A stretch of 11,556 nt of DNA from a virus. Taxonomy: Duplodnaviria; Heunggongvirae; Uroviricota; Caudoviricetes. A model generated the notes under the pieces. That model searched no databases, was not told where the DNA came from, and worked only from the letters and a program-made list of their open reading frames with translations. The DNA lies in IMG/VR virus record IMGVR_UViG_648276659_000002, positions 1 through 11,556 of that record. The stretch is one strand, 5' to 3'. Position 1 is the stretch's first letter. Each line of letters begins with the position of its first letter. The translations under genes and the position numbers were made by a program. Positions 1-7,372 of this stretch are shown one piece after another.

Positions 1-28
1 AAAAAAACCCCCGGGCGGGGGGGCGGGG
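1..28 (-). terminator. Rho-independent terminator downstream of the 332-aa ORF
   Basis: Read on the minus strand: a 5-bp C/G stem (plus 8-12 pairing with 17-21) around a 4-nt loop, followed by T7 (complement of A1-7). It lies directly after the stop codon at 36-38. Confidence 0.6.
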
Positions 29-35
29 ATGAGGA

Positions 36-1034
36 TTATGTTATCTCTTTGACATAAAGTATTATCGCGGACTTTATTTCACCATCTAGTTCTTTTGCGT
101 TGATTGACAAATGAACTGGTTTTCTATCCCACTCAGCTTGCTGAAGAGCTTTTTTATGCTCGGATGCGTCGAGAAAAACATCTTGTACTATGCACGATAT
201 TCTTAGATCGGAGTCAACATTTCTCACTTGCACTTTGAAGCTCTCTGGATCAGTGGAGTCAACCTTTTCAATGCGATAATTTCCATCAAGGCGGATCTCC
301 ATTGATTTCCGCCTTGCATTTGTAGTGAGGGTTTTGGATAGATCTGCATCCAATACAACGCCATCAATCTGAGCTGTATCAGCCTTGACAAATGATTTAA
401 CTATGTCGGTTTTTGCGTCATGAGCAAGTCTTTCCATGTTGTCTAGCTTGGGTTTTTCGCTAATAATCTGAGTCAATAATTCACTTCGTTTTGTTTCCTG
501 CTCAGACATGAAGCGCATGGTCGCAAGGTGTTCACGCTCAGACTCGCTTTTTACTTCTGCCATGCGAATCTCTTTGCGGTCTTCTAGATATTTTTTGAAT
601 AGGACGACGCCGCCCCATATAAGAGCGACCCCTAAAACTGTAATAACGATCTCTTGAGGGCCCACTTTACTCACCGCAGTTTGTATAACCTCACCCATGA
701 ACCCATCCATATTAACTTCTATCAAGGACGAGCCATTCTCAACATTCACCTGAATTTCGATAGCTTCCTTCTCTTCTTTTGAAAGCTTTCTTGGGTCAGG
801 AACTCCGTACTTTAACAATGCATAAGCTCGGTTTATTTGGGCCTGCATTTCAACAAAACCCTTCATGACAGAAGGAGTCAAACTGCCATGAAATTTGTCA
901 CCAGTAAGACGGAAGGTTAAGTTAGGCCACCCTTCAAATGATATTCCATCAGGAAGATCTTGCCCAGCGATGTACATCTCAACAAAACGCAAAGCATCTT
1001 CTTCGGAATGAATAACCGCCGTGCTGATTTCCAA
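36..1034 (-). CDS. Hypothetical membrane-spanning protein in the rexAB-equivalent position (candidate superinfection-exclusion / abortive-infection factor)
   Basis: 332-codon ORF co-oriented with and 121 bp downstream of cI. The listed start is TTG at 1032-1034, preceded by AGAGG 7 nt upstream; an alternative ATG is at 975-977. One central hydrophobic helix (IVITVLGVALIWGGVVLF) is flanked by charged, coiled-coil-like stretches. GC is visibly lower than in neighbouring genes. No family recognised. Confidence 0.7.
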   Translation of the reverse strand: MEISTAVIHSEEDALRFVEMYIAGQDLPDGISFEGWPNLTFRLTGDKFHGSLTPSVMKGFVEMQAQINRAYALLKYGVPDPRKLSKEEKEAIEIQVNVENGSSLIEVNMDGFMGEVIQTAVSKVGPQEIVITVLGVALIWGGVVLFKKYLEDRKEIRMAEVKSESEREHLATMRFMSEQETKRSELLTQIISEKPKLDNMERLAHDAKTDIVKSFVKADTAQIDGVVLDADLSKTLTTNARRKSMEIRLDGNYRIEKVDSTDPESFKVQVRNVDSDLRISCIVQDVFLDASEHKKALQQAEWDRKPVHLSINAKELDGEIKSAIILYVKEIT

Positions 1035-1155
1035 GACTAAGCCTCTATAATTATTAATAATTTCAAATGATTGCTGTTTTTATTAGGAGACATTTAGCCA
1101 TTCATCACCCAAACGTCTCTTCAGGCCACTGGTTACCAGCTATGTGACGATGAAG

Positions 1156-1863
1156 TCACGAACTTTTCAGCCATTCCCTTGCCTCGATGTCATCCAGATG
1201 GCGAGACTGCTTCAGAATACCAGCAACATACTCCACCTTTGCTACTTGATGATAAGGCAACGTTATTGGCCTGTGGTCCTGGTTGATGCTTGTAAATTGG
1301 TATTCTCCATCTCTGTCATAGCCAAGAACCTTAATCATGTTGTGTCCTTCAACGGTTCTGACAAACACCTCATCACCCGGGAATACTTTGGTGTTAGGCT
1401 CAATGAGTACATATTCTCCTGATTTTATTCTGGGCCACATGCTGTCTCCTTTCACACGAAGACCAAAGGCATCTGGATCATCGCTATAAATCTTGAGCCA
1501 CCCATCGCGCTCTTCGGTCATCTCGATGGCACCATCAACACCAAGAATTGCCTCACCAACCACGCGCACTAACCCTTTTTTTAATTTGCCAACAAATGAA
1601 AGAGTATCTTCATCATTCGCTCCATTTAACGAAGTGCCGTGCTGAAGCCACACAACATCAACGTTTAGAAATTTCGCAAGCGCATTCATTTTTTCCTGAC
1701 GTGGTAAAGACTCAGCATTAAACCATTTGCTAACGCCTTTGGACGAAAGAGAAAGGGCGCGGGCTATGGCCATTCCCCTACCATGTTCATCAAGACCAGC
1801 TTCTTTACAGGCTTGCGCTAGCCGCTGGGCGAATTCTTTGCGCACTTTTTCATTCTGAACCAT
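1156..1863 (-). CDS. cI: CI-type prophage repressor (N-terminal HTH, C-terminal S24 LexA-like autopeptidase domain)
   Basis: 235 aa. HTH-like segment (GMAIARALSLSSKGVSKW) and C-terminal GDSMWP...K motif typical of the S24 Ser-Lys dyad. Divergent from cro across an operator region. ATG at 1861-1863. Confidence 0.9.
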   Translation of the reverse strand: MVQNEKVRKEFAQRLAQACKEAGLDEHGRGMAIARALSLSSKGVSKWFNAESLPRQEKMNALAKFLNVDVVWLQHGTSLNGANDEDTLSFVGKLKKGLVRVVGEAILGVDGAIEMTEERDGWLKIYSDDPDAFGLRVKGDSMWPRIKSGEYVLIEPNTKVFPGDEVFVRTVEGHNMIKVLGYDRDGEYQFTSINQDHRPITLPYHQVAKVEYVAGILKQSRHLDDIEAREWLKSS

Positions 1864-1941
1864 GAGTACGATACTAAAGCACTTGCAAAAACTTTCAGTT
1901 CAATCATAATGCGTACTGAAAGTACGAAAAAGGATATCCAC
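1864..1941. promoter_or_regulatory. OR-like tripartite operator with divergent pRM and pR
   Basis: Three dyad-symmetric sites about 24 bp apart: AGTACGATACT (1865-1875), ACTTTCAGT core (1891-1899) and CGTACTGAAAGTACG (1912-1926). Rightward pR: -35 TTGCAA 1883-1888, -10 CATAAT 1905-1910. Leftward pRM: -10 TAGTAT (complement of 1871-1876) about 7 nt from the cI ATG, implying a leaderless cI mRNA as in lambda. Confidence 0.65.
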
Positions 1942-2169
1942 ATGCAAAATCTTGATGAGCCGATTAAAGGTGTCGGCATCCCTGAAGTTGCGAAGGCTTG
2001 TGGAGTTAGCGAAAGGGCTGTCTATAAGTGGCTCAAAAACGGCTTCCTCCCTAAGACTGAGTTTTTTGGGAAAACGAAATATGCATCAAAAATCGAAGAG
2101 ATTTCTGGTGGCAAATATCAAGCAAGCGAAATGCTTGAAATAAGCAAAAAGAACCTTTTGGCAGCATAA
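1942..2169 (+). CDS. cro: Cro-like HTH regulator
   Basis: 75 aa, divergent from cI, with HTH segment IPEVAKACGVSERAVYKW. ATG at 1942 is preceded by AAAAAGGA. The upstream ATG at 1909 would lie at or before the predicted pR transcription start. Confidence 0.8.
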   Translation: MQNLDEPIKGVGIPEVAKACGVSERAVYKWLKNGFLPKTEFFGKTKYASKIEEISGGKYQASEMLEISKKNLLAA

Positions 2170-2176
2170 GTAACCC

Positions 2177-2222
2177 CGCTCTTTGTAACAACGGACATTC
2201 GTCCTACGTCGCTGAAAAGCGA
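2177..2222 (+). promoter_or_regulatory. nutR-like site (boxA plus boxB hairpin)
   Basis: CGCTCTTT (2177-2184) matches the boxA consensus. TCGCTGAAAAGCGA (2209-2222) forms a short stem with a purine-rich loop, resembling lambda/P22 boxB. A second small hairpin GGACATTCGTCC lies at 2192-2203. Located between cro and cII as in lambda. Confidence 0.45.
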
Positions 2223-2289
2223 ATCCCAGAATATCTGACCAACCAAGGCCATATGCGTTTCCACGCATACCTTTCAACTAACTATTCAC

Positions 2290-2330
2290 TATTGGAAAAT
2301 TAACAAATGACACAAGCAAGTTACAGCAAG
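2290..2330 (-). promoter_or_regulatory. pRE-like CII-activated promoter
   Basis: Minus strand reads TTGC-tgtaac-TTGC (plus 2316-2329), the TTGC-N6-TTGC CII recognition repeat, lying inside cII codons 4-8 as in lambda. Candidate -10 TAATTT is the complement of 2297-2302. Confidence 0.5.
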
Positions 2331-2603
2331 CCAACACAGCGTGACGTTGATCGCGCAGAAACAGATTTACTCATCAACCTGTCAACGCTTACCCAGCGCG
2401 GTCTGGCAAAGATGATTGGCTGTCATGAATCGAAGATAAGCAGAACGGACTGGAGATTTATTGCTTCGGTCTTGTGTGCTTTCGGAATGGCATCAGACAT
2501 CAGTCCGATTAGCAGGGCTTTTAAGTATGCGCTTGATGAAATCACAAAGAAAAAATCCCCGGCTGCCACCGAGGATTTTAAGCAAATTGATATGCAATTC
2601 TGA
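2307..2603 (+). CDS. cII: CII transcriptional activator
   Basis: 98 aa, collinear with lambda CII as recalled, including the C-terminal KKxPAATE...Q..M.F pattern. Position after cro/nutR. Confidence 0.85.
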
Positions 2604-2626
2604 GGGAATTACTGGATCAATCCACA
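2550..2626 (-). ncRNA. oop-like antisense RNA with its intrinsic terminator inside the cII 3' end
   Basis: Minus strand: stem TCCTCGG / CCGGGGA (one G-U pair) around loop TGGCAG, then T6 (plus 2550-2575). Candidate leftward -10 CATAAT is the complement of 2633-2638, giving a transcript of about 76 nt antisense to the cII 3' end. The -35 is weak. Confidence 0.4.
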
Positions 2627-2635
2627 GGAGTAATT

Positions 2636-2782
2636 ATGACAAAACAACTCAGTCCTTACCAGGACAAAATTCACAAACACATACTACGTGATCGCTTCCT
2701 GTCCAGCTTCAAGCAGCCTGGTCGATTCCGGGCTGAGTTGGAAAAAGTGAAGCTGATGCAGAAGGAGAAAGGTCATGAGTAA
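2636..2782 (+). CDS. Small hypothetical protein (48 aa) between cII and O
   Basis: ATG 2636 preceded by AGGAG with a 5-nt spacer. Its last codons overlap the start of O by 8 nt. Below the size cut-off of the supplied ORF track. Confidence 0.35.
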
Positions 2783-3635
2783 TCTTGCAACCGTAACACA
2801 TTTAAGGCCTTCACAACGGCCTGTGGAGCGTCGTGTGGCAGAAGTTGAAGATGGTTATACCCGTCTTGCAAATGCCCTGTATGAAGAGCTTATCGGCGCA
2901 GATTTAACAAAAAATCAGAGTAAGGTTGCCCACGCCATATGCCGTAAAACATACGGATACGGTAAAAAGATGGATCGCATCTCTGATAGTCAGTTAGCTC
3001 AAATTACCAGGCTGCCAAGACAGAAGGTAAACAAGGCCAAGAATGAGCTTATCGCGATGAAGGTAATCCTTCGCGAAGGCCAGCAAATCGGGCCTAACAA
3101 GAACATCGAGGAATGGCAAATCGAAGGGTGTCACTACTCTGGTGATAATGTCACTGCATTGGTGACAAAAAGTGTCACCAAAACGGTGACAGCGCTGTCA
3201 CCAAAACAGGGACACACAAAAGAAACTATTACAAAAGAAAAAAGAAATAATAAAAACACTATGTCCGAAAGTGTTCGGACGGAGTGTGAAAAAACTCCTG
3301 ACCGTCACGAAGAAACCGACAAGGCATTCGAGGAAATATTCTGGTGTGCAGGCATGCGGAAAGCCGGGAAGAAAAACGCAGCTTCAGCATTCAGAACACA
3401 GTTCAGGGAATGGCGTAAAACTACCAGGGGGACGGCAAGCGAGTTTGCCACGATGCTGGCAGAAGACATCGCATGCAGGAATGGTAAGCAGTTCGGATTC
3501 GACAGGTTGTTACCATCGAGCTACTTGAACGGTCAGCGCTGGAACGACGAAAAGCCAGAAACCATTCAACCACAATCCAAACCATCATCCGCAATCACCG
3601 TATCGAAAACTGGCTACGTGTTTTTCGACAGGTGA
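2775..3635 (+). CDS. O: Replication initiator protein O (iteron-binding)
   Basis: 286 aa. N-terminal domain matches lambda O as recalled (DDGY.RL...GADLTK.Q.KV...RKTYG..K.MDRI.DSQL..IT.LP). Strong RBS AAGGAGAAAGG. Origin iterons lie inside the gene. Confidence 0.9.
3128..3262. repeat. Replication origin: four about 20-bp iterons plus an AT-rich tract inside the O gene
   Basis: Iterons begin near 3128, 3149, 3172 and 3195, each TGTCAC(C)-N5/6-GGTGA(C/T)A, with the fourth arm degenerate. They are followed by an A-rich tract at 3219-3262, the lambda ori arrangement. Confidence 0.7.
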
Positions 3636-3746: not shown

Positions 3747-5623
3747 GGCCAAGTGAACTTAGCGACCTGCTTTGGGCGCAGGTTGACAGGGTGGCTCCGC
3801 ACCTGTTGCCAAATGGCAAGAAAGAGGGGCATGAGTGGGTTGCCGGTAACGTCAACGGTGACAAGGGAAACAGCCTTAAGGTCAACCTTAGCGGCAAGAA
3901 AAAATGGGCTGATTTCGCTGAGGGAGACGGCGGTGACATGCTTGATTTGTGGATGGCATGTCGTGGAATTAACCTGCATCAGGCTATGCAGGAAGCGAAA
4001 GCATTTCTCGGTATCAAGGATGACGATCACCATTTCGATGCCAGACGTGAGAAGAAATTCTCCAGACCTGATCGCAAGAAAATCGCCCGCTACGTTACCA
4101 GAACAGAATCCCATCTTGAGTACCTGCAATCGCGTGGCATATCGCCAGAAATCGTAAAGCGCTACGAGGTTGTCAGCGGCAAGGTGTGGAATGGAGAGCG
4201 GGAACTAGATGCTCTGGTGATTCCGTACAAACGCGATGGTGAGTTGTTGCAGGTCAAGCGAATCAGCACTGAGCGCCCGGACGGGAAGAAAGTCATTATG
4301 GCAGAAGGTGATTGCGAACCTTGCCTGTTCGGATGGCAGGCTCTGGACGCTGGCGTGAGGGCGGTTGTGCTTTGCGAAGGCGAAATTGATTGTATGAGCT
4401 ATGCGCAATACGGCATCTCGGCGTTATCCGTGCCGTTTGGTGGCGGGAAAGGCGCTAAGCAACAGTGGATTGAGTTTGAGTATCACAACCTCGACAGGTT
4501 TGAGGAAATATTCATCTCGATGGACGTTGATGATGTTGGTCGTGAAGCCGCAAGGGAAATCGCAAGCCGACTCGGTGAACATCGTTGCCGTCTTGTTACT
4601 CTGCCGTACAAAGACATCAACGAATGCCTGATGAACGGTGTTACCGAGGATGAAATCTGGCAGTACATCGGCACGGCATCCTACTTCGATCCTGAAGAAC
4701 TCTACAGCGCGCGAGAGTTTTACCAGGACACTATCAACGCTTTCTACGGCAAGCAGCAATATCTGTTTAATCCACCGTGGGAATCTCTGGCAGATAAATT
4801 CCAGTTCCGTGAGGCAGAGTTGACGCTGGTCAATGGTGTGAACGGTCACGGAAAAACGGAGGTTGTCGGGCATATGGCACTTGAGGCAATGCGTCAGGGT
4901 GTGAAGACGTGCATCGCGTCACTTGAGCTGAAGCCTGGTATTCTCCTTAAGCGCCTTACCCGTCAGGCGACGTGCTGCAAGATGCCGCCAGTGCTGGAAA
5001 TTGACTCTGCATTTAAATTTTATGACGAAAGACTTTGGGTGTTTGGCCTGACCGGAACGGCGAAAGCCGACAGGCTGATCGAAATATTCGACTACGCTCG
5101 CCGCCGATACGGGATCCAGTTATTCATCATCGACAGCCTGATGAAATGTGGCATAGGCGACGATGACTATAACGGGCAGAAGGCGTTTGTTGACTCGATT
5201 TGCGACTTCAAAAACAAAACAAACTCCCACGTCATTCTCGTTACTCACTCGCGAAAAGGAGACAGCGAAGAAAAACCAACCGGGAAAATGGACGTAAAAG
5301 GCTCTGGAGCGATAACAGACCTGACAGACAACCTTTTCATCATCTGGCGTAACAAGGCTCGCGAGAGAGCGTTACAGAGAGTTCAGAGTGGTGAAAAGAT
5401 GTCAGAGAAGGACGAACAGCTACTGGCGTCTCCTGCATCTGTTTTGATGCTTGAAAAACAACGTAACGGCGAAGGTTGGGAAGGTGGTGTCCCGTTGTTC
5501 CTTGACGAGCAATCGCACCAGTTCCTGCAACTTGAATCAGGATCGCCATATAGCTACATCGCCAATATGCCGAAATCGGAATATGACGAGGCGTGGCGAC
5601 AGGAAAACGTGACGGAGTATTAA
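3743..5623 (+). CDS. Bifunctional DNA primase / replicative helicase (zinc-binding N-terminus, TOPRIM, SF4 DnaB-like ATPase)
   Basis: 626 aa. N-terminal W.DFA.G.GGD..DL motif, TOPRIM-like acidic motifs (LCEGEIDC, SMDVDDVG), then Walker A GVNGHGKTE and Walker B-like FIIDSLM. RBS GAGGG. Confidence 0.88.
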   Translation: MRPSELSDLLWAQVDRVAPHLLPNGKKEGHEWVAGNVNGDKGNSLKVNLSGKKKWADFAEGDGGDMLDLWMACRGINLHQAMQEAKAFLGIKDDDHHFDARREKKFSRPDRKKIARYVTRTESHLEYLQSRGISPEIVKRYEVVSGKVWNGERELDALVIPYKRDGELLQVKRISTERPDGKKVIMAEGDCEPCLFGWQALDAGVRAVVLCEGEIDCMSYAQYGISALSVPFGGGKGAKQQWIEFEYHNLDRFEEIFISMDVDDVGREAAREIASRLGEHRCRLVTLPYKDINECLMNGVTEDEIWQYIGTASYFDPEELYSAREFYQDTINAFYGKQQYLFNPPWESLADKFQFREAELTLVNGVNGHGKTEVVGHMALEAMRQGVKTCIASLELKPGILLKRLTRQATCCKMPPVLEIDSAFKFYDERLWVFGLTGTAKADRLIEIFDYARRRYGIQLFIIDSLMKCGIGDDDYNGQKAFVDSICDFKNKTNSHVILVTHSRKGDSEEKPTGKMDVKGSGAITDLTDNLFIIWRNKARERALQRVQSGEKMSEKDEQLLASPASVLMLEKQRNGEGWEGGVPLFLDEQSHQFLQLESGSPYSYIANMPKSEYDEAWRQENVTEY

Positions 5624-5791
5624 ATGACCATCTACATCACTGAGCTAATAGCAGGGTTATCGTTACTAATGGTTCTTACTGTATATATTATTAAGTATAT
5701 TCTTTATGCGAATAAAAAAAACCAATTGATCACGATGAGCTTCTGTCAACATTATCATATGACTCAGAAACAGGAATATTTAAATGGCTAA
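5624..5791 (+). CDS. Possible small membrane peptide (55 aa); competes with the HNH N-terminal region
   Basis: ATG 5624 immediately after the helicase stop, with GGAG 6 nt upstream. Encodes one hydrophobic helix (IYITELIAGLSLLMVLTVYIIKYILY). Overlaps the frameshifted HNH reading frame in AT-rich DNA, so it may be spurious. Confidence 0.25.
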   Translation: MTIYITELIAGLSLLMVLTVYIIKYILYANKKNQLITMSFCQHYHMTQKQEYLNG

Positions 5792-6318
5792 AAACAAATT
5801 CAGTAGTAAGAGTAAAAGGTAGTATTGCTGGAGGTGTTAGTGGTGGTTATATATGCATTAGCATAAATAATGTTTTGTATTATGCGCATAGGCTTGCTTG
5901 GTTCTATGTATACAAAAAATGGCCTCCTAAGTTTATTGATCATGTAAATGGGAACAGACTTGACAATAGGATTTCAAATCTAAGACTGGCAACAGAGGAG
6001 CAGAATGCAAGAAACATTGTAGGTAATAGGTTAAACACATCCGGTGCGATTGGAGTGTCTTGGGATAAGACAACTGGCAGGTGGAAGTCTTATGTTGGTT
6101 ATAAAAATAAGACAATATCGTTAGGGTATTTCGATAGCAAAGAAGATGCAGCATTCATAGCAGCACTAGCAAGAAAGAAACTATATGGAACTTATGCGAG
6201 TAAAGCACTTAATTGCGAGCATGAGCTTTTATCTCAATTTAATAATGATGAGGATAAACTTGCGGAATATCTTAAGGAAAAATCTAAAAGGACTCGAAAG
6301 CGTGTTAAAAAAAGATAA
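5706..6318 (+). pseudogene. HNH-AP2 endonuclease, copy 1, disrupted by a frameshift in an A8 homopolymer
   Basis: The track ORF (5875-6318) starts at TTG and lacks the N-terminal region. The same frame is open back to 5716 and encodes the conserved N-terminal part (YDSETGIFKW...GGYICI). ATG 5706 is one base out of frame across the A8 run at 5714-5721; A7 would restore a full-length protein of about 200 aa. Motifs HRLAW...DH.NG...N...NLR are followed by an AP2-like segment. Confidence 0.55.
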
Positions 6319-6350
6319 AGGCCTGCTGGTAATCGCAGGCCTTTTTATTT
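6319..6350 (+). terminator. Rho-independent terminator after HNH copy 1
   Basis: AGGCCTGC (6319-6326) pairs with GCAGGCCT (6335-6342) around an 8-nt loop, followed by TTTTTATTT. Confidence 0.7.
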
Positions 6351-6365
6351 GGGGGAGAGTAAATC

Positions 6366-6572
6366 GTGGCTGAGTTTATGCTCGTCGCACTCAAATGCGT
6401 TGGCGTTGGATGGATTCTTCTGACGTTTTTTATTGTTCTGCATAGCTACATTCGTCTTGTGAATGACGGTAAAGACCCATGGTATACGTTGTTTGGCGCT
6501 GCATTTGTCTGGGTGATTATCGGTGTTATGCCTGTCGCTGTAGCAAAAATGGCGTGGCGTTTTGTTAGTTGA
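6366..6572 (+). CDS. Small hypothetical membrane protein (two predicted TM helices)
   Basis: 68 aa, GTG start preceded by GGGGGAGAG. Two hydrophobic stretches. Sits just upstream of ninB. Confidence 0.45.
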   Translation: MAEFMLVALKCVGVGWILLTFFIVLHSYIRLVNDGKDPWYTLFGAAFVWVIIGVMPVAVAKMAWRFVS

Positions 6573-6579
6573 GGTAACG

Positions 6580-7026
6580 ATGAAGCCAATATACATGCTT
6601 CGCAACGAAGCAATCAGAAACAACGCCATAGACGCAATACTCTCACTTCCGATCGACGACAAGTCACCTCACGAAGTCCACATTAAAGAACCAAAGCGGA
6701 GCAATCCTCAAAACCGCCTTATGTGGGCGTTATTGCAGGACGTATCGCGTCAGGTGCTCTGGCATGGAGAGAGACTTGCGCCGGAGGACTGGAAAGATCT
6801 GTTCACTGCCCTGTGGCTTAAGACCAAAAAACTGGAGCAACGAAGTGCGCCTGGTATCGACGGTGGCGTTGTTATGCTTGGCGTGCGTACCAGCAAAATG
6901 CGAAAGGCCAGCATGACTGAGCTTATCGAAATCATGTTCTGGTTCGGCTCAGAGCGCAACGTGCGGTGGAGTGATGACTCCCGGCGAGAGTATGAATGGT
7001 CACAACGAACAGGGAGGGCGGCATGA
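6580..7026 (+). CDS. ninB: NinB (Orf) recombination protein
   Basis: Collinear with lambda NinB as recalled (...QN..W..L.DVSRQV.WHG..L....WK..FTA...SD..R...EW..R.G.RAA). ATG 6580 with GAGG upstream; the track start at 6562 is TTG. Confidence 0.88.
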
Positions 7027-7205
7027 GGCGACAGCGACGAAGTTTCACCGACATAATCTGTGAAAACTGCAATTACCTTCCAACGAAACGTTCCAGAAAT
7101 AAACCCAGGCCAATCCCAAAAGAATCTGACGTTAAAACCTTCAATTACACGGCTCACCTGTGGGATATCCGGTGGCTAAGACATCGTGCGAGGAAAACAA
7201 GGTGA
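7023..7205 (+). CDS. ninE: NinE
   Basis: 60 aa starting MRRQRRS, matching the lambda NinE pattern as recalled. ATG overlaps the ninB stop (ATGA); RBS AGGGAGGG. Confidence 0.78.
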
Positions 7206-7372
7206 TTGACCAAAATCGAAGTTACGAACAAGAAAGCGTCGAGCGAGCTTTAACGTGCGCTAACTGCGGTCAGAAGCTGCATGTGCTGGAAGTTCACGTG
7301 TGTGAGCTCTGCTGTGCAGAACTGATGAGCGATCCGAATAGCTCAATGTACGAGGAAGAAGACGATGGCTAA
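7202..7372 (+). CDS. ninF: NinF (CxxC zinc-ribbon-like)
   Basis: GTG 7202 overlaps the ninE stop (GTGA) with AGGAAA upstream. Product [27 protein letters not shown]... matches lambda NinF as recalled. Confidence 0.78.

Follow-up and report, generated by a model that had tools for sequence, protein, structure and literature searches.

In the window analysed here, a stretch of 11,556 nucleotides, a free-standing gene for an HNH-AP2 homing endonuclease is very probably present as a heritable null allele, a young pseudogene of an ordinary kind rather than a device for regulation. A frameshift of one base in an A tract close to the start of the gene has disrupted it, as the first-pass annotation of this DNA had proposed: alleles with seven A (A7) are intact, and the allele with eight (A8) found in the window stops after seven codons.

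The window matches a lambdoid prophage in E. coli MS 196-1 (NZ_CP146681.1) almost exactly, departing from it by one mismatch and a divergent start. The first 21-28 bases (window 1-28, AAAAAAACCCCCGGGCGGGGGGGCGGGG) are unmatched in NZ_CP146681.1 and resemble contig-end junk; given this mismatch at its start, the window represents a different assembly. From the left, the gene order is a cI-like repressor, cro, cII, an O-like replication protein, a 626-aa toprim/DnaB-type primase-helicase and the locus under study; to the right of it come a 68-aa protein, ninB, ninE, ninF, a second HNH copy, ninG and ninH, and the end is taken up by a phosphatase gene, Q, a third HNH copy and the lysis genes. The 68-aa protein (6366-6572, GTG start) is hydrophobic, belongs to phrog_1165 (unknown function) and lies behind a terminator; it is found in HK022 and in the window prophage but not in MS 21-1, where ninB comes directly.

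Read from the window sequence, the A run at 5714-5721 (plus strand, as are all features described here) is exactly eight bases long. The original endonuclease start is the ATG at 5706, since the annotated 612-nt HNH gene of A7 alleles begins at the equivalent ATG. In the window this frame reads ATG CGA ATA AAA AAA ACC AAT TGA and is now a seven-codon ORF (MRIKKTN, 5706-5729) with its TGA stop at 5727-5729. The body of the endonuclease, which corresponds to residues 4-203 of the intact protein, occupies another frame at 5716-6318 that opens right behind a TAA (5713-5715), lacks a start codon and closes with a TAA at 6316-6318. It comprises the HNH_3 domain (about 5878-6012), the codon of the catalytic His79 (5941-5943) and the AP2 domain (about 6046-6189). 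Copy 1 in the window thus has no single ORF from the family start codon to the stop, the ATG-5706 frame ending at 5727-5729, and what remains after the frameshift amounts to 198 codons without a start. The first-pass annotation had placed the ATG at 5706 out of frame with the body across the A8 run, and its coordinates and frames were as described.

Within the body, gene finders call a 147-aa remnant ORF from a TTG (5875-6318, WP_000291032.1), upstream of which no Shine-Dalgarno sequence is visible. The conserved N-terminal region of the family had been said to lie in frame upstream of this ORF, and it does: the peptide encoded from 5716, KKPIDHDELLSTLSYDSETGIFKW..., aligns with the N-termini of both intact paralogues in the window, and in the alignment with these two paralogues the invariant residues G23, F25 and W27 all fall before the TTG. 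In NZ_CP146681.1, PGAP annotates at the locus a pseudogene fragment, 'HNH endonuclease, incomplete', and an 87-aa 'AP2 domain-containing protein'.

When one A is removed, the frames join into a protein of 203 aa (about 200 aa had been predicted), identical to the protein of A7 alleles and, over its full length, to the catalogued protein P0016, present on 167 contigs. The repaired protein matches phrog_99 'HNH endonuclease' over residues 2-200 (E 3.8e-72). This full-length match requires the removal of one A; as encoded in the window, it is split over two frames. Pfam HNH_3 (PF13392) was recognised at residues 58-102 with 57.8 bits (cut-off 24.8), and AP2 (PF00847) at residues 114-161 with 32.6 bits (E 1e-7), a score just below the curated cut-off of 33.3. 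A D-H...N...N motif, FIDHVNGNRLDNRISNL, is common to the repaired protein and both window paralogues, with which it aligns end to end (34% identity with the paralogue at 7365-7931, 41% with that at 10064-10576). A sequence search of the PDB returned a single, weak match, to the AP2 domain of plant WRI1 (E 0.0015), and our search of the literature on an HNH-AP2 protein in lambdoid phages found nothing specific. Judged by these alignments, the predicted protein resembles the HNH endonuclease family far beyond chance.

The same prophage holds three paralogous HNH_3+AP2 genes (5706-6318, 7365-7931 and 10064-10576) that share 34-41% identity. They form low-GC islands in separate slots, behind the primase, at ninF/ninG and at Q/holin, and copy 1 alone is broken.

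A census of the tract across four collections marks A7 with an intact ORF as the ancestral and dominant state. Among 125 complete E. coli genomes that carry the segment, A8 was found in MS 196-1 only (this census used an 80-nt probe; all 59 other matches listed span 79 nt, hence A7). The tract was A7 in 19 of 19 phage records, in 28 of 28 IMG/VR contigs and, with a pattern that left tract length free, in 13 of 13 metagenome contigs, A8 being found in none of these; the GTDB species-representative genomes likewise gave no A8 match. The 203-codon ORF was intact in all but one of the 37 complete copies from IMG/VR and metagenomes. HK022, PA28, several Stx phages and many E. coli carry DNA 98-99.8% identical to the cassette of the window, with A7 and the annotated 612-nt gene, which bears the name 'HNH endonuclease' or 'homing endonuclease'. 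Comparison with homologous prophages, proposed earlier as a check and run here, therefore gave A7 and an intact ORF as the norm, the sole difference in the tract being a one-base gap (at 5721 against loci L002 and L003).

The HK022 gp57 type (HK022_57; WP_001220570.1; the 'homing endonuclease' of PA28; phrog_99) resembles the window also in its surroundings: the gene is preceded by the replication genes and followed by the terminator and ninB, and it is overlapped by a 34-aa upstream ORF (HK022_56). It differs by A7 in place of A8, whereas in the window the native ORF is cut to seven codons and the upstream ORF has 55 aa instead of 34.

The A8 allele recurs as four prophage variants distinct in sequence. 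The exact 55-aa product of the upstream ORF, which is specific to A8, was found on six contigs at four places (L004-L007) in read-based assemblies of several public runs, and all are A8. Compared with the flanks of the window, these four differ by 0, 4, 16 and 25 substitutions, and in two of them the primase is interrupted by an intein-like insertion. These two (L005 and L006) are different prophages, as their primase-helicase (94-3000) has 968 aa instead of 626 aa, with a LAGLIDADG-type insertion in the helicase part at about window position 4855. The insertion itself, with a weak LAGLIDADG_3 match, resembles an intein that carries a homing endonuclease. Over window positions 5648-8352 the four A8 variants do not differ and show no second lesion, which fits a young pseudogene. 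That the endonuclease body has no second lesion in any A8 haplotype could also be read as continued constraint; the missing lesion is uninformative, however, because the identity of the four window-type variants over 5648-8352 left no time for decay.

A second A8 allele occurs in another cassette haplotype, which has 13 substitutions relative to the window, CTAATTG behind the tract and an upstream ORF of 33 aa. Its contigs number at least 24, an additional 92-aa ORF is part of its surroundings, and it was absent from complete E. coli genomes. Since A8 also stands in this distinct cassette haplotype, the change from A7 to A8 arose at least twice.

Further lesions came to light when the 147-aa remnant ORF was looked up. 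In two loci (L011, L016) the A5 run at 5789-5793 of the window has gained an A, which causes an A5-to-A6 frameshift. IS100 (IS21 family) is inserted at 5757-5761, with a target duplication ATATG, in L014, L015, L018, L025, L026 and the IMG/VR contig L050; the complete genomes CP024240 and CP023349, two ETEC from Bangladesh, are among the carriers. In L019 the end of an IS element, which from its terminal sequence we take to be IS1, is joined at 5806. These lesions indicate that loss of the endonuclease gene is tolerated and recurrent. Many intact copies thus coexist with five or more inactivations that arose independently (A8 twice, A5 to A6, IS100 and the presumed IS1). This is the pattern of a decaying pseudogene, one of three readings offered by the first-pass annotation: A8 is rare, derived and recurrent, and the same gene carries other null lesions elsewhere.

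The intact gene is the content of an inserted cassette, whose edges we derived from the cassette-free sites of lambda, Sf101 and ES18. Aligned to these empty sites, the low-GC HNH cassette spans 5656-6321, which is 666 nt here and 665 nt with A7; its GC content is 0.34-0.37, while the flanks have about 0.5. At its borders stands an AGG / ATAA(C)AGG repeat, so that each junction can be placed only to within about 3 nt. In the cassette-free phages the site is occupied by ninA, a gene of 26 aa (phrog_5907) directly behind the last replication gene. The left half of the interrupted gene lies at 5624-5655 and is common to phages without the cassette. The right half, at 6317-6350, contains a terminator hairpin and U tract with the sequence of the lambda ninA/ninB intergenic hairpin, the lambda tR2 terminator; the hairpin proper covers 6317-6344, and the endonuclease stop (6316-6318) adjoins it. 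The empty site of lambda reads ATGACCATCTACATTACTGAGCTAATAACAGG followed directly by CCTGCTGGTAATCGCAGGCCTTTTTATTTGGGGG..., and the cassette sits exactly between the two (empty sites at 368-450 of L024 for lambda and 1265-1345 of L008 for Sf101; window counterparts 5624-5655 and 6319-6373).

The upstream neighbour of the cassette varies by phage and may be a toprim primase, a DnaB-type helicase, ren or a 92-aa ORF, and in these different phages the left edge of homology always falls at the ninA ATG. A single target site in otherwise different genomes and the existence of cassette-free sites, the two marks of a mobile cassette, were both found. This insertion pattern is characteristic of a site-specific homing-endonuclease element, and we infer from it that the cassette is mobile and has ninA as its target. 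Other cargo also occurs in the ninA slot: Min27 has an 89-aa ORF32 before an intact ninA, and a 92-aa ORF is present in L021-L023.

The locus resembles free-standing phage homing endonuclease genes (Goddard and Burt model; T4 seg/mob) in being a low-GC cassette with precise edges at one target site, with varied upstream genes, cassette-free sites and several independent null alleles. Its fit to the homing-gene cycle is drawn from population data, and homing, cleavage and specificity are putative here. Under the pseudogene reading, the extra A was most likely gained at codons 3-5, where the A7 run is prone to slipped-strand mispairing during replication (replication slippage); a prophage would have no need of the endonuclease, so that null alleles would be tolerated; and the A8 allele would represent an early stage in the cycle of homing-endonuclease invasion, degeneration and loss.

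The insertion also explains the ORF that starts at 5624, which is the ninA start joined to cassette sequence (hereafter ninA', 5624-5791). Its residues 1-12 match phrog_5907, its ATG abuts the primase stop and a GGAG lies at 5614-5617. It encodes 55 aa in the window and 34 aa with A7, because the same extra A shifts the ninA' frame. The 34-aa form, annotated in HK022, is found on at least 1000 contigs, and in intact alleles it overlaps the endonuclease start by 23 nt, ending 20 nt past the endonuclease ATG. The first-pass annotation had held that the 55-aa ORF and the endonuclease could not easily both be real. The ORF is indeed present at 5624-5791, but the mutual exclusion does not stand: the two ORFs normally overlap over a short stretch, and the mutation has incidentally made this overlap long. 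In an A6 allele of the tract (P0024, eight contigs), ninA' is fused in frame with the endonuclease into a 230-aa ORF named 'HNH endonuclease', with a hydrophobic segment at its N-terminus.

No recognisable Shine-Dalgarno sequence precedes the endonuclease ATG (window 5690-5708). Together with the ninA' stop 20 nt past that ATG in intact alleles, this suggests that endonuclease expression is weak, or coupled to ninA' translation. A promoter scan of 5400-6600 found promoter-like sites no commoner than in shuffled sequence and no plus-strand site upstream of the endonuclease gene, and a tRNA scan of the window found none.

It is improbable, though the least so among the alternatives, that the A8 allele still makes the endonuclease through recoding, as a design for low expression of a toxic nuclease. 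Such a product could arise by RNA polymerase slippage that yields A7 transcripts (a one-base deletion in the mRNA), by ribosomes that start at ATG 5706 and shift +1 on AAA AAA A, or by a -1 shift, on A_AAA_AAC, of ribosomes in the well-initiated ninA' frame, which would give a NinA'-HNH fusion of about 231 aa. The idea draws on the intrinsic slipperiness of A runs and tRNA-Lys, on the good GGAG of ninA' and its junction with the primase stop, and on the heptamer A_AAA_AAC (5716-5722, ninA' frame) that the extra A itself creates and from which a -1 shift would enter the endonuclease body frame. In one IS cluster this heptamer is a proven -1 motif for which no known stimulator is needed (PMC4066793). 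Runs of eight A are productive for slippage in some bacteria (PMC1088944). Against recoding, A8 is a rare derived state that is not conserved, and IS elements and another frameshift have also destroyed the gene, whose loss is thus tolerated. We found no RNA structure 3' of the tract (5700-5800; MFE -8.4 kcal/mol, z +0.53). Compared with a slippage site, the two-frame state is unconserved, no stimulator was found and the tract has eight bases, fewer than the nine or so from which slippage usually counts in bacteria (PMC1088944). With GFP reporters, deletion-type rescue by E. coli RNA polymerase was undetectable on all poly(A) runs assayed, those of up to eight included, and A runs shorter than eight showed no activity; lambda N antitermination further lowers deletion slippage (PMC6260861). 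The position of the gene is that of the N-antiterminated early right operon in the lambda-type layout, which also counts against the transcriptional route. As to a +1 shift, known +1 sites are stimulated by stop codons, and in the frame of ATG 5706 a sense codon, ACC, follows the tract.

The known poly(A) frameshifts that are rescued by slippage (IS transposases with A9/T9, Thermus dnaX with A9, IS1 with A_AAA_AAC) resemble the window in having a homopolymer at a frame junction, and the likeness to the IS1 site extends to the heptamer that the extra A makes in the upstream ORF frame; we take IS1 to be the IS cluster mentioned above. The window differs from these systems in that its tract has eight bases of unconserved length and no stimulator, a single-frame arrangement is the norm, and rescue would need a deletion-type slip. 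Slippage-based expression control, also raised by the first reading of this DNA, is therefore unsupported, there being no structure at the site and no deletion-type slippage in the published reporters. The A8 allele may nevertheless have a trace leakiness, with some residual full-length product made by rare slippage.

Phase variation is less probable still. Here the A tract would be a reversible ON/OFF switch (A6 and A8 off, A7 on), selected for the endonuclease or for the length of the NinA' membrane peptide. A6, A7 and A8 do all exist, A8 arose at least twice, and the tract lies at an ORF overlap where one indel alters both products. However, off variants make up a few percent at most, seven bases are short for a contingency locus, and the IS insertions are irreversible nulls of the same gene; the compared alleles are 98-100% identical, too alike to speak for conservation of the tract. 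We give the same slight chance to a mutational switch among A6, A7 and A8 in which the A8 heptamer would yield traces of a membrane-anchored NinA'-HNH fusion and A6 would encode the fusion directly; if true, the switch would be a tunable, low-toxicity expression mode for a selfish element.

Least credible of all is a homopolymer sequencing or assembly error hiding a true A7 and an intact gene, the remaining reading that had been offered: homopolymers are error-prone on some platforms, A8 is confined to one of the 125 complete genomes, the first 21 bases of the window resemble contig-end junk and a neighbouring gene in NZ_CP146681.1 is likewise flagged as frameshifted, but the window and NZ_CP146681.1, which are different assemblies, both have A8, as do independent assemblies from reads with four distinct flanking haplotypes, two of them with a differently built primase, and the second gene haplotype shows it again on its 24 or more contigs.

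We therefore return to the young pseudogene as the reading of this locus. Its proper annotation is a single pseudogene, that of a 203-aa HNH endonuclease with a frameshift, together with a ninA remnant. The 147-aa 'HNH endonuclease', the 87-aa 'AP2 domain protein' and the 55-aa hypothetical membrane protein are a wrong split of this one locus. The endonuclease cassette and its intact gene are already known, and the importance of the allele beyond annotation is slight. As the empty target sites of lambda, Sf101 and ES18 are known, homing by the putative enzyme is directly testable.
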